A stretch of 62,477 bases of DNA, filler included, from Actinobacteria bacterium UBA7524 (GCA_002478275.1; 7 parts of 7 records of this genome joined end to end with filler, not necessarily neighbours in it); one strand, 5' to 3'. Counted from the first letter of the whole stretch, positions 6,899 to 62,477 are shown. Program-made: numbers and translations. The notes: generated by a model from the letters alone, not told the origin.

Positions 6899-7011
6899 GC
6901 CATACACCTCCTTGTTCAGTAACGTGACCGGCTAGCGAAGATCTTGCGAGTTGGCCGGGAGCGGGACGAGCAAGGATCCGCACCCGGTTCGCGACAGGGG
7001 ACGTTCGGCAT

Positions 7012-12867: not shown

Positions 12868-13098
12868 ATGACCGAGTTCACCCTCGAAGATCTCGTCGCT
12901 TACGACGGCAAAGACGGGCGCCGTGCCTACGTGGCCTATCAGGGTGTCGTTTACGACGTCACTGAAAGTGCGATGTGGGGCGATGGCGAACACGAAGCCA
13001 TGCATGATGCCGGTCAGGACCTGACCGAAGCCCATGATGATGCCCCGCATGATGTCTACGTGACGGATTTTCCAGAGGTGGGCAGGTTGTCCGGTTAG
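12868..13098 (+). CDS. Cytochrome b5-like heme/steroid-binding protein
   Basis: FTLEDL..YDGKDG..AYVAYQGVVYDVT...W..G.H...H.AG.DLT.....PH. Confidence 0.88.
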   Translation: MTEFTLEDLVAYDGKDGRRAYVAYQGVVYDVTESAMWGDGEHEAMHDAGQDLTEAHDDAPHDVYVTDFPEVGRLSG

Positions 13099-14399: not shown

Positions 14400-14624
14400 G
14401 AGTTCTCGATCCAAGGATGGTCCATTCAGGATGAGTCCGCGCTCGCGTGAGCACGGCACGTGGGAATGCGGTCCGATACGGGAAGTATACTAGCGCGATG
14501 TGGGTTCGCGGCTATCGGTGCGCATCACACGACCTGCTACAGTAGGTGTCGCGCAACACCGATACTACTTTCGTCGAATGCAGCCGGGCATCGATGCGCG
14601 GTTCGAGTAGGAGGGTGTCTCCAG

Positions 14625-17406: not shown

Positions 17407-20400
17407 CTACGGCCATGCACCCACGGTGCCGTGAGATCCGCATCCGTTGACGCCGCACCCGCCTGAGCTCCAGCCTGTGGGAGTCTTGTTTCCCGTGGAG
17501 ATCCCCAGCACCCTCTGCGACTGGTACGGAGGCGGGTCGGACATGTAGCCGATCAGGCGCGGGCGCTTCCAGGCATGCGGTGTGCGCACGTGGCAGTTGT
17601 TACACAACCCGTTGGTCGTGCCTTTGTGGTCGCTGCGGTTGTGCACGTTGCCGTTGACCGTCCCGTTGAACAGGTTCGTGTTCTGATGGCACTTGGCACA
17701 GATCGGCAGCCCTGCTCCAGTGATGTTGGATGCGATCGCGTTACCTGTCGTGATATACGCACTCGTGTACGGAGCCGGGTAATTCGGGTCGACACCGAGC
17801 GTCATCGCCGCACCGTGCGGTCCTGTGGCGCCGGAGACGGTCCCGTGACAATCCCCGCAGCTTACGATGCTCGTCGCGGTATAGCCGCTGCTGGAGGTGA
17901 ACATGTTGGCTATGGTTCCCGGTCGACTCCACGTCGCCGTCACGCCATCGACCGCCAGCGTGAACGAAGTCTTCATGCCGGGCATCGACGTGTACACCCG
18001 ATGGCCCGACCAGTCATCGCTGAACTGCACCCCGCCGATCGCAGGCGACCCTGTATGCGCCGCGCCGTTCCAGCCCTGCCGCTGGACGTGGATAGAGGAC
18101 TTGCTCACCGTCTTGTGACAATCGGTACACAGCGCGGTGTTGGCGGCCTTCTGAATCGTCGCGTCGTTATTCGCTTTGGTGACGTCTGTCGGCGCACCGC
18201 TGTTGCCGGCCTTGCGGTGACAGATCGAGCACGGCGTCGAGACGTATGCCGCCAGCTGATGCTCGCGGTCGATATCGTCATCGTGGCACCCGGAACAGTA
18301 CGTCGAATTGAAGTTCGCATCGAACACCGCAGAGCTGCTGAAGCTCGTCCGGTGCTGGTTGGCCGCGTGATGATCCCGGTTCACACCCGGATGGCAGCCG
18401 CTGGCCTGACAGTTGAGCTGCGTGGGATGCGCGCCCGTCCCGGCGTGGCAGCGGTCGCACCCGAAGTTCGACAAGCCGGCGTGGATGTTGGCGACGTCGG
18501 TCACGATGTGGCACTCGGTTCCGTTGGGGTTGTTCTGGCAACTTGCCAGCGCGGTGCTTCCCGCGGGCAGAGGTGTCGTCGTCTTGGTCGTCCCTTCCAT
18601 GAACACGTCATCGAAGTAGGCGAACTCGCCGCTGGCCGCGTTGAACGATGCCGAGAGACGGATGACCAGTTGCGTCGCTGCGGGCAGGTCTCTGCGAACG
18701 TTCGTCCAGCTCCCGACGTTACCCGCCACCTCGTGAATCACGTACCAGTTAGTGCCGTTGTTCGGCGAGTACTCTATGCGCACCCAATCTCGGTTGCTAC
18801 CGGTCGCTGTCGAAAGACCCGCCGTCTGGTACCAGACGCTGAAGCTCACTCCGTCGTTGTACGCGCTCGTGTTGAAGGTTCGCGTGACCGTACGGGTCGT
18901 GCGCGTGGTCGAGTTGCTTGTGATGCGAAGTCGCGAACCCGTACGTCCGCCGGTGACTACGGAGACATTGGTGGTATCGGAGCGCGTCCATGCCGCAGGC
19001 CACGTCGTGCCGGTGCCCCAGTTCTCGTCGACCACCACCGTGTTCGCCCAGGTGATGGAGGAGCCTGGCTGTGACATGACCTGCGCGCTCGCATCGTGCT
19101 TCTCGGCCCAGCCTCGTCCTGCCGTGCGGTGCAGGCCGCCGGCGCCGCTTGCCATCGAGTGACATGAACCGCCTTCGCCTCCACAGCCGCCCGCCCACGG
19201 GTTGACGAAGTTGTCGACTCTCAGCTCGTGACACGTGACACACTCGTTGCTGTAGCCGTTGAGCCTGAAGTCGTTGGCCTTGACATGCTCGGTCATCAGA
19301 TCGGTCGTGTGGCAGTTGGCGCACGGTACTTCGTAGCTCACTCCGGTTGCGTCCGGATAGTACTTGTTCACTGTGACGCCGAAGCTCGTGGTGCCCCAGT
19401 TGCTGCCCGATATCTGCTGGTTCTCCTGGTGGCTTGACGCCCACTCGTCGTAATGGTTCGGGTCGTAGGGATGGTACGCGTAGGTGCCGAGTTCGACGCC
19501 GTTGTGACAATCAATGCAATCAGCAGTGTTAGTGGCGCCCAGGTTCGAGCCAGCGTTGTGGCATGTGGTGCAGTCACCGCCGTGCTGGTCTATGACGCTG
19601 TCGTTCTCATGACACTCGATGCAACCGCCGGTATCCATTCCCGAGGCATCGTGGACGGTCATGTCATGCGGGTCGACATCGTGACAACCGGACGCCCCAC
19701 ATGCGAGCACAGAAGGCTTCTGCGCCTGCCCGTTGTAGTCGTGACACACCGAACACGCCGGGTCGGGAGCGATCCCGTTGCCCTTGTGCAGCACGTGCAG
19801 GTCCCACGTGGCGTGACATCCCGTATTGACGCACCCGGTCCCCGTACCGTTGACTCCCGCGGGAGCGACGCCGCCCGCATGACCGTAGAGCGAATCACCG
19901 GGATCGGGCATGGCCGGGCCGTTGTGACACGTACCGCAACTCGCCCAGCCGCTCACCACGACGTCCGGGAAGGCGTTGTGGCAGCCGGCGCAGGTGATGT
20001 CACCCTTGTCGGGCAGCCCCTGGTGCTGCACCCACAGTCCGATCATGCCACCCGGGTCGTTGCGACTGTGGCAGTCATTGCAGCGGGCGACCGTCTGGCC
20101 GTCGCTCGCACCCTTGACAGGACCCAGGAACGCACCCGGGTCGTGAGCACTGGCCAGGTAGTGTCCGGTCGGCACGGGCTCGGTCAGTTCGACGGCGTCA
20201 GGCGCGTTGTCGTAGAGCAGCGTGCCACCGCCGTGACAGTTCTGGCAGGTGTTCGGGTCGTTGAACTGCGAGTTGCTGTGGTTTGCCGCTGTATGACACG
20301 GCCCTTCGGTGCATCCGGAATTCGGGTGATAGTCAAGGTATGTGGGTTCGGCGCTCGCATCGGTACCGTGGCATCCCGCACCCGAATTCGTGCAACCCGT

Positions 20401-23325
20401 GATCGTCACGTCGTCGTAGTCAGAGTCGACGAGATTCAACGAGTGCGCGTGCGGAAGCATGCCTTCGTGACAGCCGACGCTGTCGCAGCCTGCCGCCACC
20501 ACTTGTACGTCGGCACTCGTATGGCACACATTACAGCTCGTCACCCCGCCACCGGAGTCCGCATCAGCGTGAAGCAGGGCGATATCGCTGCCGTTATGGC
20601 ATGACGCACCACTGCAGCCAAGCCCGTCGGCGGAGGTCCCGAGATCATGCTGCGCAGCATCGAAGGAGTTGTGAAGAGTGCCGTGGCAGTCCGAGCACCG
20701 GCGATCGGTCCATCCAGCAACGATCACGCTCTTGGCGTCGATCGGCGCGCTTGAAGTATGGCAGTCGAAGCAGCCCATGGGTCCGCTTGACAAGGTCAGC
20801 AGATGCTCTGCCTTAAGCGAGTTCGCGTGACAGCTCGTGCACGCCTTATCGGTGACCACGCTGCCCCCGGTCGGAACCGACAGGCCTGTGTAGTCTGCGG
20901 TGTGGCTTGCCAGATACGGGTCATAGTGGTTGGGGTCGTAGGGCTGGTAATCGTAGCTACCGAGCACGGTGGAATTGTGGCAGTCGGTGCACCGCGCTTC
21001 GTAGTTGTCCTTCAGGTAATGGGTGAGCTTGTTCGTTGGCAGCTTGTTGTGGCAGTTGTAGCACATGCCGTCGTGGTAGATCAGACCGTTGCCCGCAGGC
21101 ACGACGAACTTGGTGTGGCAGACGAGACAGTCAGCGTTGTCGGCGGCAAGCTGCGGTGTCGCCTCGGGCGCATGCGGCGTGATCCAGTCATGCGCCGCAT
21201 GGCAATCGAGACAGTCGCCCTCGGTCGGCACCGTTGCCGGGTCGTCATGGCACGACAGACACGACGAGCCGCGGGGATGGCTCACCGTCTCCTTCCAGGC
21301 GTTCGTATGGATCAGGTCGATACTGGCCACCGTGTGGCACAGAGCGCCCGAACAATTGACGGAAGATCCGCCGATACCGTTCGTCGCGGTCCAGTCGTGC
21401 TTGAACGCGTACTCGTCGGAGGGGTGAGGCGCCCCCGCCTTACCGCCGGCGGTCGGGTGGCAGGCCACGCATGTGTTGGTCGCGGGCGCACCGGCCATCC
21501 AGCCTGTCGGGAAGTAAGCGACTTCGTGGCACTCCACACAGCCGATATAGGTGTCGCCCGTACCGCGCGAGCTGGTCTTGGCGTGTTCTGCCACGGCATC
21601 GACGATCAGATGGCAGCTGCTGCAAGCATGTCCACCCGTGCGCTCGACACCGGCATCGGTGCCGCTCGCCACATGCGGGGGGGCAGGATGCGTCTCAATG
21701 CTCACGACACCCGAGCCCACATGGCAGCCCGCGTCCGTGCAGTCCTTGGTGAGCGGGAACGTGGCCGCGCTGTGACAGGTGGTGCATCCGGTCGTCCACT
21801 CGTTGGCGCGCAGAGAGCCGTCGTAGGCACGAGGAGGTGTGGCGCCCGCACCGGCGGCGCGCGCGTTGGCCGCCGAGTCGTCATGGATGAGTCCCAGATC
21901 GCTTCCGTGACAGCCTCGGCACTGCGCAGTGGCGGCGTCTGTGGCGGTGTGGTCCGAATCGATGAAGTTGTGCGGCGCCTCGCCGTTAGCACCCTGGTGG
22001 CAGTCCGACCACGTGCACGTACCGTCGTAGCCGGTCGAGGGCAGGGGCACGTACACCGGATGGCACGACGCGCACACTGACGCGCTGGTCTTGGAGCTCG
22101 ACCTGCCGTGCTCGTGAAGCATATTGAGACTGTGACAGGTCGTGCACTCGTAGTCGGGCGCCGGACCGGGATAGACGCCTACGGTCTGCGAGGCCTCATG
22201 ATCGAAGTCCCCGTGTGAATCGTGACAGTCGGTGCACGGCGGGGCGATCGATTCGGGCAGCTCGGAATAGACGCGGAAAGCGTCGACGACGACATAGGTG
22301 GCGCGTGCCGAGGAGTTCTTCTGGTTCAGCACCTCGACGACTATCGTGTGCTCGCCCGGACCGAGGTCATCGGCCGTGAACACTATCGCCTGGAGCTTGG
22401 TGGCGGGCGAGTACAGGTCGATGACCTCGACGGGCTGCCCGTCGATGCGTACTCTCGCCTTTCCGCGATATGGATCGAGGTCGGAGACAAGCTCGACCCG
22501 CGAGCCGGTGAACGTGACCCCCAGCGTCGAACCGGCGACGTTACTGAGACTGTATCGCGCACCGGACCTCGCCGAGTTGGAAACCGTCTTCCACGTCCCG
22601 GTCTTGATGACCTCGTTCGTCGCTGTCGGGTCCTGCGGGTTGCCTCCGGCACTGTGCGCGTAATCCTCACGCACGCGCGGAGCAAGATCGCCGATGCCCT
22701 CCAAGTCATGGCAGACCGACGTCGCACACTGGTTGCTCACGTTCGTGGCGGTTCGCATGGTCTGGTCCGACCCCACGACACCGTACGCCACCGTCCCCGA
22801 CCAAGGGCCATGCTGCGTCGCTCCATGCTCTTCGTGACGAATGGCCAACGGTTCCGTGTGACACGCGTCGCACGCGGCAGGCGCATGGCAGCTCGAACAC
22901 GCGCTCACACTGGTGTTGACGCTACCCGCCCAACGGGCTTTCGAGTGGATCACGTGCAAGACGGTTGGCGGATAGTCTTTGGACGAGGCCGAAGCGAACG
23001 AGGCTCCCGCCGCCGCGTCGTAATGCATCGGAAGGGCCGTGCGGAGCGTGTCCCCCCAGCCGGGATGACACATGGCGCCGCAGTTGGCGCCCGCCTGGTG
23101 GTACGGGTGAGAGCCCGCAAGACCCGGAAGATGGCACTTCGCACACGCCGTGTCCCGGTCGACTCCCCCCACCGAGAAGTCCTGGGTCGCACCGTGGCAG
23201 TGCAGACAGTCCGCATTGTTGGCGGCATAGCTGTACACGGGCGATATCAACAGGCAGACAGCCGCAACCGTACACACGAACGCCGCGACCCACGCCGCCA
23301 CCCGGTACTTACATCGAATATGCAC
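17407..23325 (-). CDS. Very large secreted multiheme c-type cytochrome (about 50 heme sites)
   Basis: Signal peptide; manual count of 38 CxxCH plus 1 Cx3CH, 10 Cx4CH, 2 Cx6CH, 1 Cx8CH; two heme-free beta-rich inserts. Confidence 0.92.
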   Translation of the reverse strand: MHIRCKYRVAAWVAAFVCTVAAVCLLISPVYSYAANNADCLHCHGATQDFSVGGVDRDTACAKCHLPGLAGSHPYHQAGANCGAMCHPGWGDTLRTALPMHYDAAAGASFASASSKDYPPTVLHVIHSKARWAGSVNTSVSACSSCHAPAACDACHTEPLAIRHEEHGATQHGPWSGTVAYGVVGSDQTMRTATNVSNQCATSVCHDLEGIGDLAPRVREDYAHSAGGNPQDPTATNEVIKTGTWKTVSNSARSGARYSLSNVAGSTLGVTFTGSRVELVSDLDPYRGKARVRIDGQPVEVIDLYSPATKLQAIVFTADDLGPGEHTIVVEVLNQKNSSARATYVVVDAFRVYSELPESIAPPCTDCHDSHGDFDHEASQTVGVYPGPAPDYECTTCHSLNMLHEHGRSSSKTSASVCASCHPVYVPLPSTGYDGTCTWSDCHQGANGEAPHNFIDSDHTATDAATAQCRGCHGSDLGLIHDDSAANARAAGAGATPPRAYDGSLRANEWTTGCTTCHSAATFPLTKDCTDAGCHVGSGVVSIETHPAPPHVASGTDAGVERTGGHACSSCHLIVDAVAEHAKTSSRGTGDTYIGCVECHEVAYFPTGWMAGAPATNTCVACHPTAGGKAGAPHPSDEYAFKHDWTATNGIGGSSVNCSGALCHTVASIDLIHTNAWKETVSHPRGSSCLSCHDDPATVPTEGDCLDCHAAHDWITPHAPEATPQLAADNADCLVCHTKFVVPAGNGLIYHDGMCYNCHNKLPTNKLTHYLKDNYEARCTDCHNSTVLGSYDYQPYDPNHYDPYLASHTADYTGLSVPTGGSVVTDKACTSCHANSLKAEHLLTLSSGPMGCFDCHTSSAPIDAKSVIVAGWTDRRCSDCHGTLHNSFDAAQHDLGTSADGLGCSGASCHNGSDIALLHADADSGGGVTSCNVCHTSADVQVVAAGCDSVGCHEGMLPHAHSLNLVDSDYDDVTITGCTNSGAGCHGTDASAEPTYLDYHPNSGCTEGPCHTAANHSNSQFNDPNTCQNCHGGGTLLYDNAPDAVELTEPVPTGHYLASAHDPGAFLGPVKGASDGQTVARCNDCHSRNDPGGMIGLWVQHQGLPDKGDITCAGCHNAFPDVVVSGWASCGTCHNGPAMPDPGDSLYGHAGGVAPAGVNGTGTGCVNTGCHATWDLHVLHKGNGIAPDPACSVCHDYNGQAQKPSVLACGASGCHDVDPHDMTVHDASGMDTGGCIECHENDSVIDQHGGDCTTCHNAGSNLGATNTADCIDCHNGVELGTYAYHPYDPNHYDEWASSHQENQQISGSNWGTTSFGVTVNKYYPDATGVSYEVPCANCHTTDLMTEHVKANDFRLNGYSNECVTCHELRVDNFVNPWAGGCGGEGGSCHSMASGAGGLHRTAGRGWAEKHDASAQVMSQPGSSITWANTVVVDENWGTGTTWPAAWTRSDTTNVSVVTGGRTGSRLRITSNSTTRTTRTVTRTFNTSAYNDGVSFSVWYQTAGLSTATGSNRDWVRIEYSPNNGTNWYVIHEVAGNVGSWTNVRRDLPAATQLVIRLSASFNAASGEFAYFDDVFMEGTTKTTTPLPAGSTALASCQNNPNGTECHIVTDVANIHAGLSNFGCDRCHAGTGAHPTQLNCQASGCHPGVNRDHHAANQHRTSFSSSAVFDANFNSTYCSGCHDDDIDREHQLAAYVSTPCSICHRKAGNSGAPTDVTKANNDATIQKAANTALCTDCHKTVSKSSIHVQRQGWNGAAHTGSPAIGGVQFSDDWSGHRVYTSMPGMKTSFTLAVDGVTATWSRPGTIANMFTSSSGYTATSIVSCGDCHGTVSGATGPHGAAMTLGVDPNYPAPYTSAYITTGNAIASNITGAGLPICAKCHQNTNLFNGTVNGNVHNRSDHKGTTNGLCNNCHVRTPHAWKRPRLIGYMSDPPPYQSQRVLGISTGNKTPTGWSSGGCGVNGCGSHGTVGAWP

Positions 23326-31742: not shown

Positions 31743-32231
31743 TCATGCGTCGCCGGTGTCGGCCGTAGCTTCCATCTCGTCGACGAGTGCCAGGACTTCG
31801 GTCACCTCGGGGATGTCTTGCATGCTATGGCCGTAATGGACGAATCGGGCGATGCCTTCCTTGTCGACCAGGACCTGAGCAGGCATCCGTCCCAACTTGA
31901 AGAGCTTCACCTGTTGCCCGTAGAGCTTGAGAACGTGATGGGCGGGGTCTGGCAGTCCGACGAAGGGAAGCGAGTGGGCCTGCCAGTATTCGCTGAATGC
32001 ACCTGCATCTTCCGGGCCGACGACCAGGACCTCTACGTTGCGGGCCACGAATTCCGAGTAGGTGTCGCGCAACTGCGCCATGTGCCGGCGGCAGAACGGT
32101 CAAACGAACCCACGGTTGAAGACCACGAGCACGTGCGAGCGGCCTCGGTAGTCGGACAGACTGACGGGCGTACCGGCGAAGTCTTCCAAGGTGAAGTCCG
32201 GCGCGGCGGTATCCAGGGCGACTCGGGGCAT
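31743..32231 (-). CDS. AhpC/TSA peroxiredoxin-like selenoprotein (UxxC; UGA at 32100-32102)
   Basis: APDFTL...VSLSDYRG...[21 protein letters not shown] joins the two ORF-track pieces in frame. Confidence 0.88.
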
Positions 32232-32357
32232 GCACTTGTCCTTCCGCGGCAGAGCCGGCCGGCGAGCTTGGAGCTGTGTGTAGGTCACGTTGGTCCATCA
32301 GGGGTATTCTATCTCTACGGGGTCGCATCCGGGCGGCCAGGGGCAGGGAGGGCTCTC

Positions 32358-34337
32358 ATGAATTCAGGCCGTGCAATCCGGACTCTATCAGTGGCTCTGC
32401 TTATAGCGGTGTTCATCATGTCCGCTGCGCAGGTCTCGGCGACACCCACCTTCTCGGAGATCGTGGTGGCTGGTGGACCGGTGATGATAGGGTCTGCGCC
32501 GATCCAGGTGAATCCGGAGTTCGACGGACGCTACATCGTGTATGAGCGCACGCCGGGAGTGGACTCGGGCCTGCTCGATACGGACATAAGGGCCTACGAT
32601 GTCGGAACCGGGCAGACCATCTCGATCAGCGATCGTGAAGGCGATGACGATGCCGATCAGATCAGTCCCGACGTTTCGATCGATACGGTCGTCTATCAGA
32701 GCTATGAGTTGCTGCACCCCAACATATTCCTCCACAACATCACGTGGTCGAATACACGTCAGGTCACCAATGTGGCTCACGCTCAGACCGGCCCGCGGAT
32801 CTCCGGCAACCACATCCTTTGGCATGACGGTCAAACCGACGCGCTCAAGTTCTACCCCGTCACCTGGCCTCAGTACATGAACCAGCAGATTCCCGGCACG
32901 GTCGGCGTGTACCAGGGCTCCTGGGACATCGATGGGGACACGGTGGTATTCGCGCGGAAGCATGGTGCAGGGGATTTCACGTTCTACGAATGGAAGCTGT
33001 TCTCGGATGCGGTACCGCAAGCGTTCGCGACCCATGAAGGGGCCGTCGACATCGCCGACGTCCGGTTGCACAACAACATGATCACCTACACCTATGGAGC
33101 TGGGCTGAACAGTCTGGGCATCCGTCCCGTCGCTGAGGGGCAGCCTCTCAGCTTCGCGGATGGGTGGCGCGACGGCGACGTCTTCCATGACATGCTGGCA
33201 TTCGAAATCGTCGCGGACAACGATGTCGGTGTCTTCCGCAATGGGGAGTGGAACACCGCGTTCGGGACCCCCGCACAGGCTGAGACCAACCCGAGCGTGT
33301 TCGGCCATCGTGTCGCGTTCGAGCGTGACACGTACAACGGCGACATCATCCTCGCCACGGCTTCGGAGCCGCTGGTGGACCGGACGGCGGGCGCGAACCG
33401 GTACGCGACAGCGGTGGCTGTCAGCGAGGAGTACTTCCCGTTCGGCGCGGACAACGTGGTGTTGTGCACGGGAGAGAACTTCCCCGACGCGCTTGCCGCC
33501 GCTCCCTGGGCGCGGTTCCTTGAGGGCCCCGTGCTGCTCACGCGCGGCTCCTCGGTGCCCCAGGTCGTCATGGATGAGATCGAGCGTCTGGGCGCGAAGA
33601 GCGTGTGGATCATCGGCGGGGAGAGTGCGGTATCCTCAGCGGTGAAGACGCAGCTGGAAGCCGAAGGGCTCTACGTCGACCGTCAGCTGCAGGGCGTGAA
33701 TCGCTACGAGACGTCCGCGAAGATCGCGTACTTCCTCTACGATGCGCTCGCTGCCGACGGTAGGCCGTTCAGCAACAAGGCCTTCGTTGCGCGCGGGGAT
33801 GCGTTCCCCGACGCGCTTGCGGTCGCCCCGCTGGCTGCGGCGACGTATTCGCCGATCATCCTGGTCAGGACCGACGCGCCGGTGCCGTCGGCGAGTGCTC
33901 AGGTCTTCCAGACACTGCCGATCTGGTATGCGTTCATCGTGGGCGGGACCGATGTGGTGAGCGAGGACGTGGAAGTCGCCATCGAGACGTGGACGACTGC
34001 GAATCTGGGTATGGGCAGCCCGGCGACCCGTTATGCGGGGGCTGACCGCTATGCGACCGCGGCCGTGGTGCTGCAGGACGGCGTGGCCATGGGGTGGGTC
34101 GATCTGGATACGGTGGGCTTCGCCACCGGCGTGAACTTCCCTGATGCTCTCGGAGGCGGTGCCGCGCTTGGTAGTTACGGGAGTCCGCTGCTGTTGACGC
34201 GGCAAGGTTCGCTACCCGGGTCGGTGTCCGCGGTGCTCGAGCAGCGCGCGGCCGAGATCGGCCGGGCCGATGTGTTCGGGGGCAGCGATGTGGTCAGCGA
34301 CGCGGTGAAGGGGTCCATCACGGACCTGTTGCGGTAG
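32358..34337 (+). CDS. Secreted beta-propeller protein with cell wall binding repeat 2 (CWB2) domains
   Basis: Signal peptide; three R..G.NRY.T repeats with FPDAL and P.LL motifs. Confidence 0.88.
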   Translation: MNSGRAIRTLSVALLIAVFIMSAAQVSATPTFSEIVVAGGPVMIGSAPIQVNPEFDGRYIVYERTPGVDSGLLDTDIRAYDVGTGQTISISDREGDDDADQISPDVSIDTVVYQSYELLHPNIFLHNITWSNTRQVTNVAHAQTGPRISGNHILWHDGQTDALKFYPVTWPQYMNQQIPGTVGVYQGSWDIDGDTVVFARKHGAGDFTFYEWKLFSDAVPQAFATHEGAVDIADVRLHNNMITYTYGAGLNSLGIRPVAEGQPLSFADGWRDGDVFHDMLAFEIVADNDVGVFRNGEWNTAFGTPAQAETNPSVFGHRVAFERDTYNGDIILATASEPLVDRTAGANRYATAVAVSEEYFPFGADNVVLCTGENFPDALAAAPWARFLEGPVLLTRGSSVPQVVMDEIERLGAKSVWIIGGESAVSSAVKTQLEAEGLYVDRQLQGVNRYETSAKIAYFLYDALAADGRPFSNKAFVARGDAFPDALAVAPLAAATYSPIILVRTDAPVPSASAQVFQTLPIWYAFIVGGTDVVSEDVEVAIETWTTANLGMGSPATRYAGADRYATAAVVLQDGVAMGWVDLDTVGFATGVNFPDALGGGAALGSYGSPLLLTRQGSLPGSVSAVLEQRAAEIGRADVFGGSDVVSDAVKGSITDLLR

Positions 34338-54864: not shown

Positions 54865-57386
54865 ATGACGCTGCAGGTCATCACAGGTCCGGCGAACGCT
54901 GGCAAGACAGGGATCGCGTACACACGTGTGCGGTCATGTGCATCGGCGGGTGGGTCCGCAGTGGTGCTACTTCCCGCGGAGCCGGACGTTGTCCGCGTGA
55001 GCCGTGAGTTCGCGCGCGACTCTCCGGTGGGTGTGCGCGTCGCCACGGTGGACGGCTTCATCGACGGGCTCTGGCGAACCGTCGGGGATGGGCGCGGGCT
55101 GCTGTCGGCGGCAAGGCGCGGGCTGCTGGTCGCGCAGACTGTCAGAATCTGTCAGTCGGAGATCCCGCACGCCGTCTGGGACACGCCAGGTTCACTCGTG
55201 TTGCTGGAGCGGCTCGTGATGCGCGCCGCCGAGTCAGGGACGGAGGGCGTGCGGCTTCCCGACCTCGGCCGATCGACATCGCCTGCGGTGGACGAGGTGC
55301 TGCTGCACGCTCTAAGCGTCTACCAGGAACAGGCGCGGGCGTCGGGCGTGGTCGAGCGCGCGGAGGCGCACCAGCTGATCGTCGGATCCCTTGAGTCGGT
55401 GCCGCTCCCCGATGTCATCGTGGTAAACGGCGTGACAGGGTTGACCGTGGCCCAAGAAGCCTTCGTCGTGGCCGCCGCACAGCGGACGGAGGTCATAGTC
55501 TGCCTCACCTATGACGAAACGGTGCCAGCGACACATGGTAGCCGTGACTTGGTCGAGCGCCTCGGGGCTCACGGCCGGGTGTGGGCCGCCCCCGGGGCTG
55601 CCACCTACACGGCCGAACCGGAGCTGCTCGTTCTGGAGCGCTCACTTGGCGGTCTCGTGCGCGGGGAGCCGCTTGTCGCGGCTGGCGCAATCCGGATCTC
55701 GGAAGCATGGGGGGACGAGGCTGAGGCAGCGCGCATTGCACGCGAGGTGCAAGAGGCGATCTCAGCAGGCATCGAGCCCGGCAGGATAGCCATCGTGTTC
55801 CGAGATGCTACGCATTACATAAGCCCGCTTCGAGCTGCGTTGGCCGAGATCTCCGTGCCGGCTGAATGGGACGTGTATGCGGGCTTCGGCGTGTCCGGCC
55901 TCGGGCGCGCGCTCCAGGTAGCCGTGCGGTTCGACACCGCCACCGCGGCCGAACGCATGGACCTCTTGCGAAGCCCGTATAGTCCCGGAGACGGTTCCGC
56001 CTTGGACGCGCTCGATTCACGTGTGCGGCGCTCAGGAGACGTGGCCCCCGGGCGGTTCGTGCGATGGTGCGACGAGGCCGATCCGCTGTTGGGCGTGTTC
56101 GTCGGCGCGGTGCGGAAGGCATGTACGTCGCGCGGTGAAGGCGCAGTGCAAGAGTGGGCGAGCGTGGTGTCGGGTATGTTGGGACGAGCGTGGCCGGAGG
56201 CCGTGCACGCGGAGATGCCGCTCATGCTCGACGCAGGCGCGGCGCGGGTCTTCATGGGCGTACTCGCGGGGGCGCTCGATTCAGCACGTGATCCGCTCAA
56301 GGACATGCATCGCGCACTGAAGCGGGCGAGGATCGCAATCACCTCCACCGGCGACCCGGGGTGCGTCCAGGTCATGAGCGCCGAGCGGGCGCGGGGCCGG
56401 CGCTTCGAGTGTGTGATCGTCGGCGGCCTGAACGACGGCGACTTTCCCCGTAGCGCTGCCGCTGACCCGCTGAGGGCTCAGAAGATCGCGGATGCTTTAC
56501 GCGACGCGGGCGTCCACATCGCATCCGGACGCGACCTTGAACTTGAGCGGCTGCTGTTCTACCAGGTCGCCACGCGCGCGTCGAAGCGTCTGGTGCTGAG
56601 CTGGCAGTCCCACGACGCGGACGGCAAACCGAAGCGGCCGTCGATCTTCCTCGAGGAGGTGCGTGACCTGTACCGCGGCAGCGAGGAGTTGAAGGCTGAA
56701 GCGCTAGGGCAGTCGCACGCTGGAGGCGCCGGGCCCGTGCCGGCCGTCCTCGGCCCCGACTGGTTCACGAGGCATCCCGCGGGCCCGGTTGCTGCGCGCC
56801 GCGAACTCCGTGCGGCGGTCACCCGATCGGCCGAAGAAGGGGGCGGTGCCTGCTGGGACGGTGAGCGGATCGCGGACGCGCGCCGTCGGGCGCGGCGGCC
56901 TGCCTGTGAGCTGAGTGAGAGTGCGCGCCGCTTCGCTTCCGAGCGTGTCGTCTTCACGGTCTCGGAGATCGAGGCGTACCTGCGATGCCCGCTCGAATGG
57001 TTCGTCAGCTTCGTTCTGCGCCCTCGGCCTCTCGACGTCCGTCTCGACGCCGCGGCGATCGGGCGCGTTGGTCACCGGGCGCTCTACCGCTTCTACACCG
57101 AGTACCCGCGCCGGACCGGGTATGCGCGGGTGAGCCCGGAGTCGCTGCCGGAGGCGCAGATGCTCTACGGGAGCATCGCCGAGTCAGTACGCGACGAAAC
57201 GCGGACCACGCGCCCGTCCGAGGGCCTGCGCATCGGCAGGATCCTCGCAGCTGGAGCTCGGGTCATCGAGGCCGATGCGGACTTCCTGCCGGGGTTCGTT
57301 CCGGCGCATGTGGAGTGGGAGTTCGGCACGGCCGAGGGGGATGAGCCGGAGCCGCTCGGGGACTTCGCGCTCGCGGGACGGATCGA
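54865..57386 (+). CDS. AddB-like helicase/PD-(D/E)XK nuclease subunit (3' truncated)
   Basis: GPANAGKT, ARGRRF..V..G.N.G.FP, ER.LFY...TRA, S.IE.Y..CP, GRID. Confidence 0.82.
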
Positions 57387-57486
57387 NNNNNNNNNNNNNN
57401 NNNNNNNNNNNNNNNNNNNNNNNNNNNNNNTTAATTAATTAANNNNNNNNNNNNNNNNNNNNNNNNNNNNNNNNNNNNNNNNNNNN

Positions 57487-57853
57487 TCCACGAAACCGGG
57501 GCAGCATCAGAGAGCCGTTTGATGTAGATGCAGCCTTTGCCGGTCTTGTGCTTGCCGAGCCTGCCGAGCGACTCCGCCAGCGAATCAAGCTCCAGCCCAA
57601 GGTAGACGGTGAGCGCGGCCTTCCTGGATGCGAACCCCACAGGGAACCAGTCGCCTTCCTGACCACTGGGCGACTTGTAGTGGTAGGTGCCGAACCCGAT
57701 GAGGCCCGAGCTCCAAACCCGGGGCTCTTCCCCGGTAACCCGCTTCATGAGCTCCAACAGGGTCAAGCAGTCCTCGCGTCGCGCATCGTCATCGATCGCC
57801 ATGATGAAGGCACTGACGCTGTCGTCTGTGCTGTGCGTCTTGATTCCGCCCAC
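57487..57853 (-). CDS. DUF1801 (YdhG-like) protein, cassette gene, 3' truncated
   Basis: IGFGTYHYK..SG.EGDW..VGF..RK, LGKHKTGKGCIYIKRL. Confidence 0.88.
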
Positions 57854-57868
57854 GAGACCCCCCGTTGT

Positions 57869-57972
57869 GCCTAACGATTCTGCGGATGGCCGCAATACGC
57901 CGCCCTCCGCGCCTCACAAGCCGAGTCTACCCTCTCACGCGGCGCATTGTCTGCTCGATCCGCTTGTTCGAC
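57869..57972 (-). repeat. attC site
   Basis: Minus strand GTCGAAC-AAGCGGATCGAGCAG...CCATCCGCAGAATC-GTTAGGC. Confidence 0.8.
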
Positions 57973-57995
57973 CCACCCGTCAGGGCACCACGCCA

Positions 57996-58200
57996 CTACT
58001 CCGGGTCATCCGGCCTCTGCGCGTCGTGCCTTACCCCGACGACCCAAGGAACTTCTCCACGCAGCTCGTGAAAGAAGCGACACGTGCCGACGAGGATCTC
58101 GCGGAATCCGATCTCCGGGAACAGGAATGACTCGCCCCGCCTTCGGAAAGCGGATCAGATGCGTGAGCGACTCCTTGGAACAGCTCCGAGACTCCCCCGC
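57996..58200 (-). pseudogene. Frameshifted ParE/RelE toxin remnant
   Basis: ELFQGVAH / LIRFPKAGRVIP / EIGFREILVG..RFF...WVVGVRH spread over three frames. Confidence 0.5.
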
Positions 58201-58244
58201 GGCTGACCGGCGCTCGCGCTCTCTGCTGGATGCCCTGGTTGGGT
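58200..58244 (-). repeat. Truncated attC (inverse-core half only)
   Basis: Minus strand ACCCAAC-CAGGGCATCCAGCAGA; exact complement of this cassette's GTTGGGT core. Confidence 0.6.
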
Positions 58245-58259
58245 GTGTGCGGAGCGCTC

Positions 58260-58844
58260 CTAGAATGGCGAGCGCATGAACGGAACGGCGAGGGACAGCG
58301 CCACAACGATGCCCACGATGTTGAGCCCGATTCCCAGCGTCACCGGCACACCGAGACGGCGCCTCATCGCCAGGACGCTCAGGTATATGCCCCAACCGTC
58401 CAGGAGCAGGTGCGTGATCCCGAGAAACACCTGATCGTGGAAGCCGAGGGCGAACCACGTCCAGTCCCAGACGACGATCACGGCGCCGACCACCAACGCA
58501 GTCATGCCGGCAACATTCACCAGGAACCCGAGGTCGCTTTCCCGACCCAGGGCGCGCAGGATCGCATGTCCCGCCAGCGCGCCGAGGAGCATCTGAGCGA
58601 AGATGATCGTAGGGGCGGCGAAGACGAGGAACCAGTAGTAGCCGTTCGCCGGTATTGGAATCACGGGCGGAGTAGGCGGGACCCGGCCCATGATCGCGAC
58701 CGGGAGGTACTCCAACAGGGAGTCCAGTGTCACGCGCACACCTTGGCCGGCGAATCCGAGCAGCCAGCCACGCCTCGCGATGATGCCTTCGACGAATGCG
58801 CTCGGACGCGTGTAGCCGAACCACCAGAGGCGAAGGAACTCCAC
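58260..58844 (-). CDS. Membrane protein (Yip1-like), cassette gene
   Basis: About 5 TM segments between attC sites. Confidence 0.65.
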   Translation of the reverse strand: MEFLRLWWFGYTRPSAFVEGIIARRGWLLGFAGQGVRVTLDSLLEYLPVAIMGRVPPTPPVIPIPANGYYWFLVFAAPTIIFAQMLLGALAGHAILRALGRESDLGFLVNVAGMTALVVGAVIVVWDWTWFALGFHDQVFLGITHLLLDGWGIYLSVLAMRRRLGVPVTLGIGLNIVGIVVALSLAVPFMRSPF

Positions 58845-58876
58845 GTCGGCCCCCCGACCTAGATCCGCCACATAAT

Positions 58877-58979
58877 ACCCAACGCTCTTGCGCTTCAGCC
58901 GCAGCGCCGCCCCCACATCACCCGCAGCCCGAGCATACCGCACACGGTCGGCACTTTCTGCTGGAAGCGCTTGTCAGGC
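58877..58979 (-). repeat. attC site
   Basis: Minus strand GCCTGAC-AAGCGCTTCCAGCAG...GCTGAAGCGCAAGAGC-GTTGGGT. Confidence 0.8.
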
Positions 58980-58987
58980 ATGGGTCC

Positions 58988-59413
58988 CTAGGACTTGCCC
59001 GCAACCGTTCTCTGCGCCTGGTACCACGGCTCCGTATGCTCGATGGCGCCACTCACATACTGCGGGATTTCGTGCGGAAGGCCACCCGAAATCGCGCCGT
59101 AGCGCAACTCGACGGCATTCGCGTCCGACTCCGACCAGAACCTCAGGATCAGCCGACAGAGTACGCCCTCGACGGGGTCGATCTGGTACCCGCCGTCGAG
59201 CGCGAGCAGATCCGGGCTCAGGTTCGCAAGGACGCCGGGCAGCAGCGGCTGCGGTGCTTGACCCACGTAGAGGTCACGGTCCTCCCAGGCGGGACGCCCG
59301 TTGCCCATCCGCATCAAGGAACCGTCAGGCTTGAGAATGAGCGTGAAGACGTTGTCATCGCCAACGTACCAGTCGATCGCCGCAGCGATGATCTCCCCCA
59401 CTGTCTGGATCAT
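58988..59413 (-). CDS. Hypothetical protein, cassette gene
   Basis: ORF fills the interval between two attC sites. Confidence 0.65.
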   Translation of the reverse strand: MIQTVGEIIAAAIDWYVGDDNVFTLILKPDGSLMRMGNGRPAWEDRDLYVGQAPQPLLPGVLANLSPDLLALDGGYQIDPVEGVLCRLILRFWSESDANAVELRYGAISGGLPHEIPQYVSGAIEHTEPWYQAQRTVAGKS

Positions 59414-59430
59414 GGGTCCCCCAACCCTGT

Positions 59431-59516
59431 GTCTAACGTCCGGCGCATCAGCCGCGGCCGTGCGCGTCTTCTCGTAGCTTACCGCTTGTGCCGTCGGCTG
59501 GAAGCGCTTGCTAGGC
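59431..59516 (-). repeat. attC site
   Basis: Minus strand GCCTAGC-AAGCGCTTCCAGCCG...GCTGATGCGCCGGAC-GTTAGAC. Confidence 0.82.
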
Positions 59517-59708
59517 GTCACGCCAGGCGCAGGAAGTCGCCTTCCTCATCTTCGAGTGCGAGGAAGGCGCTCTCCAGCTGCGCCTCAAGGGATGGCTGAT
59601 CCCAGATGCACGCCCGAAGTTGCGGTATCCAAGACCGTACGCCGTCACCAGTGATCCGAAGGCTTTCTGTGCTGCGCGAACGAACTGCGACGAGCCGACG
59701 AAGGACAC
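59511..59708 (-). CDS. Short hypothetical or internally deleted cassette ORF
   Basis: RBS AGGAGG plus GTG; stop falls in the attC inverse core. Confidence 0.4.
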   Translation of the reverse strand: MSFVGSSQFVRAAQKAFGSLVTAYGLGYRNFGRASGISHPLRRSWRAPSSHSKMRKATSCAWRDA

Positions 59709-59725
59709 TCGGGATCCTCCTGTAT

Positions 59726-59818
59726 GCCTAACGTTGTCGCGCATGGACTGCGCGGTTGAACCGTATCGCGCGAAACGCGCCGACGCCGAAAGGCGTCAGG
59801 CTGATGCGCTTGCTAGCT
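59726..59818 (-). repeat. attC site
   Basis: Minus strand AGCTAGC-AAGCGCATCAGCCTG...GTCCATGCGCGACAAC-GTTAGGC. Confidence 0.8.
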
Positions 59819-60250
59819 GCCCGACAGCAGTCCTTCGAGGATCTCAGCGGCCGCGCGTACGGCCGGAAGGCACCGCGACTCGCGCAGACCCTCCTCCTGC
59901 ACGATCGCCCGTTGCTCAGCAACCCGAACGTCGTATCCGAGAATGCCGGGGCAATCAAGGCTTCCGACTCGCTCTAGGAAGCGAGCATTGAACGTGTCGA
60001 CCATGGACATGACCTGATGGCGGCTCTCCGGGGTGCAATCCTCGTCGCAGTCAGAAAGCCCGAGAACGAGCAGGGCCCCCAGCGCCGCGCCACAGGTGCT
60101 GCCCGCGCGAACGCCGCCGCCCAGCGCGGCCGACAGCCTCAACGCCTGCGAAGTGGTGATGCCGAAGGATGGAGCGAACGCTGCGAACACCGCCTGCGAG
60201 CATGAGTAGCGGTCGCGGAACAGCTGGCTCGCAGCATCGACTCGACTCAC
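59813..60250 (-). CDS. C_GCAxxG_C_C family redox protein, cassette gene
   Basis: YSCSQAV, TCGAALGA, GSLDC..IL, C..AV. Confidence 0.88.
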   Translation of the reverse strand: MSRVDAASQLFRDRYSCSQAVFAAFAPSFGITTSQALRLSAALGGGVRAGSTCGAALGALLVLGLSDCDEDCTPESRHQVMSMVDTFNARFLERVGSLDCPGILGYDVRVAEQRAIVQEEGLRESRCLPAVRAAAEILEGLLSGS

Positions 60251-60270
60251 GTGGGACTCCCCCTTGGTCC

Positions 60271-60549
60271 AGCTAACGCCTCTGCGGATGAGCNNNNNNN
60301 NNNNNNNNNNNNNNNNNNNNNNNNNNNNNNNNNNNNNNNNNNNNNNNNNNNNNNNNNNNNNNNNNNNNNNNNNNNNNNNNNNNNNNNNNNNNNNNNNNNN
60401 NNNNNNNNNNNNNNNNNNNNNNNNNNNNNNNNNNNNNNNNNNNNNNNNNNNNNNNNNNNNNNNNNNNNNNNNNNNNNNNNNNNNNNNNNNNNACAAGCCG
60501 AGTCTACCTTCTCACGCGGCGTATTGACTGCTCGATCCGCCTGTTAGCG
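60271..60549 (-). repeat. attC site interrupted by an assembly gap
   Basis: Minus strand CGCTAAC-AGGCGGATCGAGCAG...GCTCATCCGCAGAGGC-GTTAGCT; near-identical to 57869-57972. Confidence 0.75.
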
Positions 60550-60849
60550 ATCACGCCGAAGCCGGTCACTCCAGGCGCGAGGATCGCGGCGAACGTGCAG
60601 ACATGCGATCACACGCACCGTGTCGTCATCCGATGTGAAGAAGACCCCGTAGGGGAAACGCCGCAGGAGCGCGCGACGAAGATCGCGATGGACGACCGGA
60701 AAGCGTCCTGGTGTGCGGCGAATATCCGAGAGGCACGCGTCGACAAGCCGAAGGAAGTCGAAGCCGAGACCCTGCGCCCTCGCCTCATACCAGAGTGCAG
60801 CGTCGGCGATGTCTCGTTCCGCCTCTGGCCAGACGACGATCCCGCGCAT
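60544..60849 (-). CDS. RelE/ParE family toxin, cassette gene
   Basis: PEAE.DI..A..WYE...GLG..F...RRALLRRFPY...VIAC.H.RRDP. Confidence 0.9.
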   Translation of the reverse strand: MRGIVVWPEAERDIADAALWYEARAQGLGFDFLRLVDACLSDIRRTPGRFPVVHRDLRRALLRRFPYGVFFTSDDDTVRVIACLHVRRDPRAWSDRLRRDR

Positions 60850-61079
60850 CAGGTGCAGAGCCGGAGCTGCTCCTCGACGCGGGCGCGCACCTCTTCCCAA
60901 GGCACGACTGCATCGGGGTTGCGATCGAGTTCGGCGAGGCGACGGTCGAGCTCTGCGATCTCAGCCTCGCTCAGAGGGACGCGAGACGTGCTCACAGCGA
61001 TGCTGTCCCAGAGATCCTCGACAAGCTGGATTCGCTCAGAGACCGAAAGACGATCGAAGTTGTGTGCTGCATTACCCAT
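60849..61079 (-). CDS. Addiction module antitoxin (TIGR02574-like)
   Basis: LSVSERIQLVEDLWDSI...ELDRRL...PWEEVR. Confidence 0.9.
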   Translation of the reverse strand: MGNAAHNFDRLSVSERIQLVEDLWDSIAVSTSRVPLSEAEIAELDRRLAELDRNPDAVVPWEEVRARVEEQLRLCT

Positions 61080-61129
61080 GATGTCAGTGTGCCCGCTTGC
61101 GGCGCCTTTCGCAACGGATTGGCGTGTAT

Positions 61130-61216
61130 CGCTAACGTAGTTGCGCATAAGCTGCGCGCCGTGCGCCTTCAGGTCGATTCTACCTCGTGCGCGTCAGCTG
61201 GAAGCGCTTGTTAGGC
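61130..61216 (-). repeat. attC site
   Basis: Minus strand GCCTAAC-AAGCGCTTCCAGCTG...GCTTATGCGCAACTAC-GTTAGCG. Confidence 0.85.
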
Positions 61217-61690
61217 CGACCCTGCCCGAGATGTCCCGCGCACGAGCCGACCGCCTTCACGCACGAGGTCCGCTCTTGCTGCGAGTTCTGTGAGGAACTC
61301 TTCGCGTTGCGAGGGAGATACGAGGCTCAATCCGAAAGGCCCGGCTTTCGTGCGAATCGCGAGACGGTCGAGCGATAGAGCCGGCGATGAGAGCGGATTG
61401 TGCGTCGGGTACACCTCGAGGATGTCGGCCAAGCGAATGCGGCTTCTCACGACGCCGAACCGGACGATGAGCTCCTCCCTCGATAGGCCATATCGGATGG
61501 GAATGATGAGAAGCGCGTAGATGGCGGTGACGATCCCGATACCTACCAGAGCAGCCACGATGCCCTCGCGCTCTCCGGATCGCAGCGCAGCAACGAAGGC
61601 TCCTATCTCGATCAACGGGAGCGCGACGAGGATGACTCCAAGCCACCAGTCGACCTTCGAGCGGAACCACGTCACGTTCAGATCGGTCAT
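61211..61690 (-). CDS. Membrane-anchored bacterial PH domain protein, cassette gene
   Basis: FRSKVDWW, 2 TM, SSPALSLDRLAI, VSP. Confidence 0.85.
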   Translation of the reverse strand: MTDLNVTWFRSKVDWWLGVILVALPLIEIGAFVAALRSGEREGIVAALVGIGIVTAIYALLIIPIRYGLSREELIVRFGVVRSRIRLADILEVYPTHNPLSSPALSLDRLAIRTKAGPFGLSLVSPSQREEFLTELAARADLVREGGRLVRGTSRAGSA

Positions 61691-61725
61691 GCCTCCGAGT
61701 CATCCACCCCTCAGCGCGGTGTTCG

Positions 61726-61820
61726 GCCTAACGCTCTTGGGCGTAACCTGCAACGCCTACGCCCGCTCCCTGCCCGAGGATACCTCACACGGCGTTGCCA
61801 GGTTGACGCCCTGGTTAGAT
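61726..61820 (-). repeat. attC site
   Basis: Minus strand ATCTAAC-CAGGGCGTCAACCTG...CAGGTTACGCCCAAGAGC-GTTAGGC. Confidence 0.85.
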
Positions 61821-62114
61821 CGCCCCGCCGAACTCGTCCTCATCGATCAACTGGCTCGCGCGACGAACCGTATGGATGTCGATATCGACACCGACCTCGT
61901 AGAAGACCCGGAAGTCCCCCAAGACGAGCTCCCTGATCCCGGGCGTGGCGACACCGCGACCGGGCTTGCCCATCTCCGGGAAGTCGCCGAGGCGTCCGAC
62001 CTCATCGAACAGCTCGTCGATCCAGCGGGCCGCGGCAGCCGGGCTGTCCTGTGCGATGTAGCCCGAGATCTCCTCGACGCGTTCGAGCGCCCGCTCCGAC
62101 CAGATGACCCTCAT
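61815..62114 (-). CDS. ParE/RelE family toxin, cassette gene
   Basis: VIWSERAL...EEI..YIAQDSP.AA...FPEMG...RELV.GDFRVFY. Confidence 0.9.
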   Translation of the reverse strand: MRVIWSERALERVEEISGYIAQDSPAAAARWIDELFDEVGRLGDFPEMGKPGRGVATPGIRELVLGDFRVFYEVGVDIDIHTVRRASQLIDEDEFGGAI

Positions 62115-62392
62115 GAGCCGAGCTTGCCGAGCACTCGCGCCCTGGCCTCGTCATGAGGTACCCCGCCACCGGCGGCGATCTGTGCTCGCGACACCTGGAT
62201 GTCGTCAAGGATGGCGAGCTTCTCGCGCATCGCCTCGAACTCGCGGATGTCGACGACGACCGCGACGCCACGACCGTGCTGGGTGAGGACGAGAGGGCGG
62301 CGGGTATCGCTCACTCGTTTGATGAAGGCCGCGACACCAGAGCGGAACTCAGAGAGCGGACGGATGTCCTCGTCGAGCCGGAGCGGTTGCAT
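62111..62392 (-). CDS. Phd/YefM antitoxin, cassette gene
   Basis: DIRPLSEFR...RRPLVLTQHGRGVAVVV. Confidence 0.9.
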   Translation of the reverse strand: MQPLRLDEDIRPLSEFRSGVAAFIKRVSDTRRPLVLTQHGRGVAVVVDIREFEAMREKLAILDDIQVSRAQIAAGGGVPHDEARARVLGKLGS

Positions 62393-62469
62393 GATGACCT
62401 CCTGGTACGCTGTCTTGTACAACTTAGCGTACGCTCCCGTCGCTCAAACAGCAAGCGCTGGCGGGGTCG

Positions 62470-62477
62470 ATCTAACG
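62470..62477 (-). repeat. Core site of next attC (or attI), cut by window end
   Basis: Minus strand GTTAGAT, exact complement of inverse core ATCTAAC at 61814-61820. Confidence 0.6.

Follow-up and report, generated by a model that had tools for sequence, protein, structure and literature searches.

Here we analyze the last contig (positions 57487-62477) of a 62,477-nucleotide stretch of DNA from Actinobacteria bacterium UBA7524 (GCA_002478275.1), which we refer to in its entirety as the window. With good confidence, we identify this contig as an integron cassette array; most probably, its host is an uncultured, anaerobic coriobacterium from the order to which a genome labelled Anaerosomatales bacterium belongs. 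The array consists of nine co-oriented cassette units arranged head to tail, all on the minus strand, and it runs off the end of the window.

An earlier interpretation made from the DNA alone (the sequence-only reading) had proposed eight or more units, each followed by an imperfect palindrome of 86-104 bp. We count nine units, six of which carry hairpins of 86-104 nt, as proposed; one further site is broken by a run of Ns and another measures 270 nt. We scored the sites, termed attC in integrons, with two covariance models: R1 was built from the six window sites, and R2, run with filters off, exclusively from 53 attCs that lie behind integron integrase (intI) genes in two other genomes. Sites and intervals are listed in the reading direction of the array, with R'' and R' denoting the heptamers that close one cassette and open the next.

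62470..62477, minus strand: 3' end of the upstream attC0, the remainder of which is outside the window; cassette 1 opens with its R' core GTTAGAT (62476-62470).
61726..61820, minus strand: attC1, 95 nt, R'' ATCTAAC, next R' GTTAGGC; R1 86.4 bits; R2 72 bits, E 4.3e-18.
61130..61216, minus strand: attC2, 87 nt, R'' GCCTAAC, R' GTTAGCG; R1; R2 E 6.4e-17.
60271..60549, minus strand: attC3, R'' CGCTAAC, R' GTTAGCT, split by the N run 60294-60492; true length about 104 nt.
59726..59818, minus strand: attC4, 93 nt, R'' AGCTAGC, R' GTTAGGC; R1; R2 E 1.6e-11.
59431..59516, minus strand: attC5, 86 nt, R'' GCCTAGC, R' GTTAGAC; R1; R2 E 4.1e-17.
58877..58979, minus strand: attC6, 103 nt, R'' GCCTGAC, R' GTTGGGT; R1; R2 E 5.5e-14.
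57975..58244, minus strand: atypical 270-nt interval, whose R''/L'' (ACCCAAC + CAGGGCATCCAGC) pairs with an L'/R'-like GGTGGGT; the outer stem is present in both the minimum free energy and the centroid structure.
57869..57972, minus strand: attC8, 104 nt, R'' GTCGAAC, R' GTTAGGC, abutting the 270-nt interval; R1; R2 E 8.2e-12.

The R' core follows the strict consensus GTTRRRY at six boundaries, with GTTAGCG and GTTAGCT as near variants, and R'' follows the strict RYYYAAC in three window sites, the others being variants ending in TAGC, TGAC or GAAC. In a larger set of 126 attCs, drawn from the window and four genomes, conservation of the AAC and GTT columns reaches 94-100%. How many GTTRRRY words occur (six in 5 kb) is not above chance; the signal comes from where they stand. 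At the cassette borders, the heptamer opening each cassette is complementary to the one closing it. Four such pairs are perfect (GTTAGAT/ATCTAAC, GTTAGGC/GCCTAAC, GTTAGCG/CGCTAAC and GTTGGGT/ACCCAAC), two contain one mismatch (GTTAGCT/AGCTAGC and GTTAGGC/GCCTAGC) and one contains two (GTTAGAC/GCCTGAC), exactly as the sequence-only reading had listed them. Its placement of five stop codons (ending at 59511, 59813, 60544, 61211 and 61815) inside the inverse core is likewise correct; the stops of cassettes 6 and 7 fall outside.

These borders are best understood in light of the proposed mechanism. Each unit would consist of one gene, or a pair of genes, that has no promoter and is closed by an attC, the bottom strand of which (the plus strand of the window) is predicted to fold into a hairpin. 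In this hairpin, a short unpaired spacer separates the R box from the L box, and two bases are flipped out. IntI, a tyrosine recombinase, would cut the R' core after its G and ahead of the TT, excise cassettes as circles and insert them at the attI site. Because the cut falls between G and TT, the head of each cassette would carry the six bases that complete its own attC. A match between R'' and the opening heptamer of the same cassette is the prediction of such G|TT recombination of circular cassettes, and this match is what we observe. Among 121 consecutive pairs, the outer three bases of R'' complement the opening heptamer of their own cassette in 96 and the adjacent, following heptamer in only 19, compared with 25.6 +/- 4.1 (maximum 38 in 1000) when heptamers are shuffled within genomes. 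In the window itself, where we compared the heptamers by hand, the complementarity is intact in six of seven cassettes. The signature of insertion as circles by IntI that the sequence-only reading had recognized is thus borne out.

The sites also share a fold. RNAalifold returns a single structure for the six window sites, in which 9 of the 21 pairs show compensatory change. A 5-bp R stem is followed by a spacer of 2 nt versus 6 nt and by an L stem; the R''-L'' arm bears an invariant unpaired C, and the top varies. The fold z-scores of single sites are modest (-0.2 to -3.2). Across the 126 attCs, 94.9% of cells are paired, a value that none of 500 shuffles reached (78.3 +/- 0.5) and that controls slid along the sequence stayed far from (22-37%), and 15 of the 21 pairs display compensatory (double) changes. 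Unpaired bases are conserved on the R''-L'' arm only, namely a C in 124 and an A in 115 of the 126 sites, which are G and T on the bottom strand. The canonical extrahelical bases of attC sites are G and T. Foldable R/L-box hairpins with extrahelical bases, which the sequence-only reading had named as something to look for, are present.

Both covariance models recognize these sites. R1 finds no other match in the remaining 57 kb of the window and gives 150 further hits at E<=1 in 190 kb of five other genomes; apart from three weak hits, those within an array share a strand. R2 recovers all six window sites with E-values from 4e-18 to 1.6e-11, and its best match elsewhere in the window reaches 16.5 bits (E 0.024). 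Searching positions 57000-62477 against Rfam at E up to 1 gave no match. The family has a median length of 87 nt. Known attC sites range from about 57 to 141 nt; eight of our sites, at 63-104 nt, fall within this range and the 270-nt interval falls outside it. The N run within attC3 overstates the gap, as just 24 letters separate 60293 from 60493 in contigs of three public sequencing runs (X1, X3 and X9). Because so few letters bridge the run, attC3 has an ordinary length of about 104 nt; it resembles attC8, with the two 5' halves 92% alike (over 53 nt). In the 270-nt interval, about 230 nt separate the paired ends, and the overall fold has a z-score of -0.39. We found no convincing open reading frame (ORF) on either strand of it and no copy in any fetched locus, and both R1 and R2 miss it. 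Contigs of runs X8 and X9 join 57944 to 58215 without the interval (side 47 letters). It may represent an insertion into an attC or a decayed cassette that lacks an ORF.

Complete integrons of the same family are found in relatives. We called IntI by a match to NCBIfam TIGR02249 over its cut-off of 265, which none of 14 control genomes exceeded. The IntI of genome G003 scores 486 bits over model positions 1-315 and aligns end to end with VchIntIA (PDB 2a3v; E 1.5e-89) with a single one-residue gap; the next best structure is a XerC-like protein at 123 bits. This alignment runs through the IntI-specific insertion, the feature by which the sequence-only reading had proposed to search for a tyrosine recombinase; G003 has such a gene, and neither the window nor the sequence extending it does. 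Directly behind the intI stop of G003, on the same strand of a 1.44 Mb contig, lie at least 36 co-oriented attCs over 39.6 kb. In G002, 59 attCs extend over 47.5 kb from the first bases of a 422 kb contig. Two G002 sites 19 kb apart (L068:2906-2991 and L069:1982-2067) are nearly identical, both scoring 71 bits, and differ in their R' triplets, a similarity that suggests a duplicated cassette.

The position of attI can be approached from the first cassette. About 108 nt behind the intI stop of G003, we found a heptamer exactly complementary to R'' of the first cassette, and such a heptamer is present on the attI side in all five loci examined, which would place attI about 100-200 nt behind the intI stop. 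Just upstream of the first crossover heptamer, three of the five (L054, L073 and L079) share a motif, roughly GTAGAA-n-CATT before GTT, which, judged from its sequence, is a candidate attI core. Of six loci that hold both elements, five have the attC array downstream of intI and in its orientation. The exception is L082 (G013:C172), in which an attC at 3342-3426 lies behind intI on the opposite strand; G013 contains three IntI matches, one of them with an internal stop. A chromosomal integron is the rule in the host order, with intI reading in the direction of the cassettes and attI probably a short distance behind its stop. The window array would then be part of a canonical integron in mechanism and parts, with reversed integrase orientation; the window itself is without an integrase.

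The arrangement of contigs in relatives bears on this missing gene. On contigs of 85-500 kb, intI often lies 190-1800 nt from the end on the array side (G011:C12, G078:C21, G031:C5, G029:C6, G058:C1 and others; L168-L187), and assembly seems to break at the repeated attCs. Many of these genes stand 190-400 nt from the end of a contig of 85-250 kb. Because such contigs end right behind intI, these integrons would escape short-read surveys in which intI and attC must share a contig. For the window array, an adjoining intI would be expected beyond the window. Since no intI is in view, the array as seen is a cluster of attC sites lacking an integron integrase (CALIN), with at least two attCs and no intI nearby as far as the contig reaches. 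A chromosomal location, a long array, similar attCs and inheritance with the host, which define a sedentary chromosomal integron, are features established for the relatives.

To map the distribution of the family, we looked across prokaryotes, each species represented by a single genome, for exact copies of a 19-mer that spans R''-L''. It occurs at 52 loci in 37 genomes, of which 25 genomes with 40 loci are labelled Coriobacteriia, Coriobacteriaceae, Anaerosomatales, Actinomycetes, Actinobacteria or Actinomycetota. Several actinobacterial matches lie on very long contigs, including the single 1.84 Mb chromosome of G001, the 422 kb contig of G002 and the 1.44 Mb contig of G003. For G001, seven attC hits reach E<=1e-6, and none of its proteins passes the IntI cut-off. 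All ten metagenome-assembled genomes (MAGs) with the 19-mer that we checked are IntI-positive members of one order, that of G033, which includes G003, G004, G002, G005 and G095 (labelled Anaerosomatales bacterium). Of its 145 species genomes, 96 carry an IntI over the cut-off, most without a stop inside the match, as do 39 of 60 relatives of G003. A sample of 400 genomes of the class contains 97 with IntI; set against the 96 within the order, this leaves only one IntI-positive genome (G309) among 255 class genomes outside it. The G309 match (C21:227-1171) has the highest IntI score (508 bits), lies at a contig start and may be a separate acquisition. The sequence-only reading had assigned the genome an attC family of its own; instead, the family is shared by the whole order, and the 19-mer occurs once each in 12 genomes with other labels.

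Several lines of evidence indicate that the integron belongs to these hosts. In G003, G026 (2.67 Mb), G027 (1.84 Mb) and G056, a single contig carries both IntI and the housekeeping gene rlmD; mis-binning cannot explain these four. Across 20 genomes, IntI identity (63-96%) tracks RlmD identity (49-95%), with a Mantel r of 0.64 that none of 5000 permutations equalled, which favors mainly vertical descent of IntI. The outer-membrane markers Omp85 and LpxC are absent from all five IntI-bearing genomes searched and present in 7 and 4 of 14 controls, respectively, consistent with a cell without an outer membrane.

The cassette contents, identified by a Pfam search, comprise two toxin-antitoxin pairs and small ORFs, listed here in array order.

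62114..62392, minus strand: cassette 1 gene 1, Phd/YefM antitoxin, 93 aa; PF02604, E 4e-16.
61818..62114, minus strand: cassette 1 gene 2, ParE toxin (type II pair), 99 aa, stop inside R''; PF05016, E 1e-17.
61214..61690, minus strand: cassette 2, 159-aa membrane protein containing a bacterial PH domain; PF06713 (bPH_4), E 1.5e-15.
60852..61079, minus strand: cassette 3 gene 1, putative addiction-module antitoxin (Unstab_antitox), 76 aa; PF09720, E 2.8e-18.
60547..60849, minus strand: cassette 3 gene 2, ParE-like toxin, 101 aa; PF05016, E 6.7e-5, 23.8 bits against a cut-off of 23.
59816..60250, minus strand: cassette 4, C_GCAxxG_C_C putative redox-active protein, 145 aa; PF09719, E 1.3e-23.
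59514..59708, minus strand: cassette 5, 65-aa ORF with a GTG start; no Pfam family.
58991..59413, minus strand: cassette 6, 141-aa ORF; no Pfam family match.
58263..58844, minus strand: cassette 7, 194-aa hydrophobic ORF, start set at a GTG behind a G-rich stretch; no Pfam family match.
57488..57853, minus strand: final visible cassette, encoding a DUF1801 protein that the contig end truncates after 122 aa; PF08818, E 7.9e-7.

The two toxin-antitoxin cassettes would probably stabilize the array. A PADLOC search of ten cassette proteins gave no hits. Beyond the contig end, metagenome contig L095 is 100% identical to the window end over 318 nt and extends the array by 1217 nt, adding one more attC (63 nt, L095:1163-1225, R2 E 3.4e-8) and two more ORFs. 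A DNA copy of the DUF1801 cassette, 85% identical, occurs in metagenome cassette array L114. Homologues of the Phd-ParE cassette stand first or early behind a co-oriented intI in metagenome contigs L090, L109 and L111, and another lies inside the G003 array. In metagenome contig L165, a classical divergent intI (5433-6380; 54% identical to the G003 IntI) is found about 3.6 kb from a Phd homologue (10001-10273); the same type of cassette thus occurs in a different integron lineage as well.

Words near-identical to 60493-62477 are present in 19 sequencing runs of 13 studies, from groundwater, hydrocarbon, biofilm, sludge and aquatic samples. When we laid Logan contigs of four public runs on the array contig, one from run X8 had cassette 1 starting immediately after an attC2-like site, the two meeting inside the GTTAG that they share (side 79; six letters fit both sides). 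Points at which contigs leave the window sequence cluster at attC borders (60548, 61214-61216, 61728-61737 and 61817-61820). These junctions and loose ends fit cassettes that are separable modules and would be compatible with active recombination. We did not use the joints 58974->61728 (side 26), 61215/61216->61727/61726 (sides 27-28) and 61819->57898 (side 37), which may stem from repeats or other organisms; all joints with a side shorter than 40 letters were disregarded. Runs X8 and X9 left cassettes 2, 4, 5, 6 and 9 uncovered, from which we draw no conclusion, and the depths, being word depths of contigs, did not enter into any judgement of copy number or binning.

How firmly the contig is tied to its bin requires separate consideration. 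The window is a chain of seven contigs connected by six linkers of the form N44-TTAATTAATTAA-N44, placed within 3244-57486, and further N runs of 2-273 nt lie inside its contigs. The array contig, cut at both ends, adjoins the last of these linkers.

57387..57486, no strand: linker N44-TTAATTAATTAA-N44, contig junction; the array contig begins at 57487.

The window RlmD (13098-14459) allows the bin to be placed. A quick tree of this one gene groups it with 20 IntI-positive genomes, as sister to G033 (Shimodaira-Hasegawa-like approximate likelihood ratio test, SH-aLRT, 92), and a branch with an SH-aLRT of 97 parts it, together with the IntI-positive genomes, from eight IntI-negative members of the class. 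In a language-model atlas, the bin is nearest to Actinomycetota clusters in 8 of 10 rows. Other window contigs encode, at 4161-6907, 17407-23325 and 31818-34337, a NiFe hydrogenase small subunit, a 1972-aa ORF and a protein with a weak S-layer-type match, which would fit an anaerobe with a Gram-positive-type wall.

A number of points weigh against the assignment of this array to a coriobacterial integron. Because only linkers join the contigs, it is binning alone that connects the array to the other window contigs and hence to that host. The tetranucleotide correlation between the array contig and the other window contigs, a comparison that the sequence-only reading had recommended, is 0.943 against 0.940 +/- 0.021 for size-matched chunks, an agreement that speaks for the bin and is partly circular because binning itself uses composition. 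The window RlmD is at most 58% identical to that of any genome of the class or order, and among 400 class and 145 order genomes we found no close relative of the bin above 56-58%; 58% equals the median divergence within the order (56%). The trees are quick single-gene searches with a midpoint root. R1 descends from the window's own six sites, and the training sites of R2 were picked with R1; the alignment of 126 sites used for pair counts was fitted to the structure and model. No intI is present in the window or in the 1217 nt beyond it in L095. The 12 genomes of 37 outside the actinobacterial labels, with one 19-mer match each, are a cyanobacterium, delta- and betaproteobacterial MAGs, Dethiosulfatarculus, Eisenbacteria, Chloroflexi, Endoriftia, Teredinibacter, Oceanospirillum, an Akkermansia MAG, a Eubacteriales MAG and an unclassified one. 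IntIs labelled Syntrophus sp. and Chlorobiales bacterium (P0101 and P0102), 73% identical to the G003 IntI, nest within the Coriobacteriia IntI radiation (quick tree, SH-aLRT 86), and this nesting reflects either cross-phylum transfer or mis-binned contigs. Finally, the actinobacterial marker WhiB was found in none of the five genomes searched and lends no support, being uninformative and not contrary.

One rival reading is that the array is real and mis-binned, deriving from a diderm or other-phylum host in the same sample with similar G+C content and coverage. The linker junctions, the non-actinobacterial 19-mer matches, the Syntrophus- and Chlorobiales-labelled members of this IntI subfamily and the divergent classical intI beside a Phd homologue in L165 speak for such an origin. 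We nonetheless consider it improbable, since the large majority of 19-mer genomes and loci carry Actinomycetota labels, arrays on Coriobacteriia contigs of 0.4-1.8 Mb are made up of attCs of this family, every motif-bearing MAG that we checked is IntI-positive and of one order, the bin RlmD groups with that order, and the composition of the contig is indistinguishable from that of the others. The sequence-only claim of a native system in a Coriobacteriia-like monoderm is thereby supported indirectly, through attC labels, the integrons of relatives, the Omp85 and LpxC results and RlmD, and binning is what would connect this particular contig to that host.

Two other explanations differ in what they put in question. 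An orphan CALIN, in which the integrase was lost and the cassettes are fossils or are moved in trans by the integrases of neighbors, concerns the state of the element and not its nature. The lack of intI in the window and 1.2 kb beyond it, the seven attC hits of G001 in a genome with no IntI over the cut-off, the 49 of 145 order genomes in the same position and the 270-nt interval, which may be a damaged site, give it some weight; we regard it as rather unlikely, given that IntI is carried by two-thirds of the order and mostly free of internal stops, that assembly routinely parts arrays from intI (short-read MAG contigs end within 190-400 nt after it) and that R''/R' complementarity is intact in nearly all window cassettes. 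That the palindromes are ordinary intergenic repeats behind small genes, such as repetitive extragenic palindrome (REP)-like elements or terminators, would account for G+C-rich hairpins at gene ends, for modest single-site z-scores and for the lack of an Rfam match. It is nevertheless extremely improbable: the heptamer complementarity follows the opening and not the adjacent heptamer, flipped-out bases are conserved on one arm only, the arrays of relatives start exactly behind bona fide intI genes, and cassettes occur in other contexts with junctions in the core.

An integron cassette array of a coriobacterial host resembles known systems in some respects and departs from each in others. Like the sedentary chromosomal integron of Vibrio (VchIntIA, with attCs of the VCR, or Vibrio cholerae repeat, type), it has relatives with long chromosomal arrays, homogeneous attCs and toxin-antitoxin cassettes, an IntI that aligns over its full length including the insertion, and IntI identity that tracks host divergence. 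Unlike Vibrio, the host is a monoderm-type Actinomycetota order and not a member of the Gammaproteobacteria, intI reads with the cassettes, the candidate attI lies behind the 3' end of intI, and the attC family, with its median length of 87 nt, is a different one. The layout with intI and attCs on the same strand and the array downstream matches that of reversed-integrase integrons in Spirochaetota, such as that of Treponema denticola, in a different host phylum. Passages of two studies describe this reversed or inverted integrase layout as a known type (PMC13323075; 10.1101/2022.02.06.479319), and in one of them archaeal integrons recovered in MAGs are described as having canonical attC folding and an IntI with an additional domain (10.1101/2022.02.06.479319). 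The archaeal elements, like ours, come from uncultured anaerobes found via MAGs; the host here is a bacterial monoderm, and recombination at its sites is predicted from sequence.

Class 1 integrons are known on Corynebacterium plasmids. As with actinobacterial elements reported before, the window array is a CALIN in an actinobacterial assembly; unlike them, its relatives hold complete integrons, with at least 36 attCs on Mb-sized contigs and IntI throughout much of an order, which points to a resident system and not to sporadic acquisition. In the passage of the IntegronFinder 2.0 survey that treats Actinobacteria, they are described as having no complete integron, one In0 element and few CALINs, a gap called intriguing (PMC9024848). 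The 'virtual absence' of integrons from Actinomycetota is noted in a passage of a MAG study from 2026, whose authors suspect that attC models miss novel sites (PMC13323075), and a passage of another work counts Actinobacteriota among phyla in which integrons are 'detected' (PMC8618304). As far as these passages go, the sequence-only statement that integrons are mainly described in diderms agrees with the literature. Within the full-text literature, with subscription journals and supplements outside the search, we found no paper on integrons of Coriobacteriia, OPB41 or Anaerosomatales. Public automatic annotation names such proteins 'integron integrase [Coriobacteriia bacterium]', and because of this the raw fact is already in databases; the new part is the host clade, unexpected to specialists.

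Combining these results, we somewhat favor a broader picture in which one order of anaerobic Coriobacteriia without an outer membrane possesses an old, largely vertically inherited chromosomal integron in about two-thirds of its species, with arrays of 36-59 or more cassettes. The window array would be one of these, and its cassettes would circulate in near-identical form among groundwater, sludge, hydrocarbon and biofilm communities, perhaps reaching into other phyla. If true, an order-wide integron would overturn the repeated statement that Actinomycetota have no complete integrons, and it would show why short-read MAG surveys miss them, as contigs break behind intI and the arrays survive as small loose contigs. 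It would also add a large unexplored pool of cassettes from anoxic habitats. Resident integrons in this order would mean that single-strand attC recombination works in this type of cell, and would provide a natural system for asking why other monoderms are without integrons.

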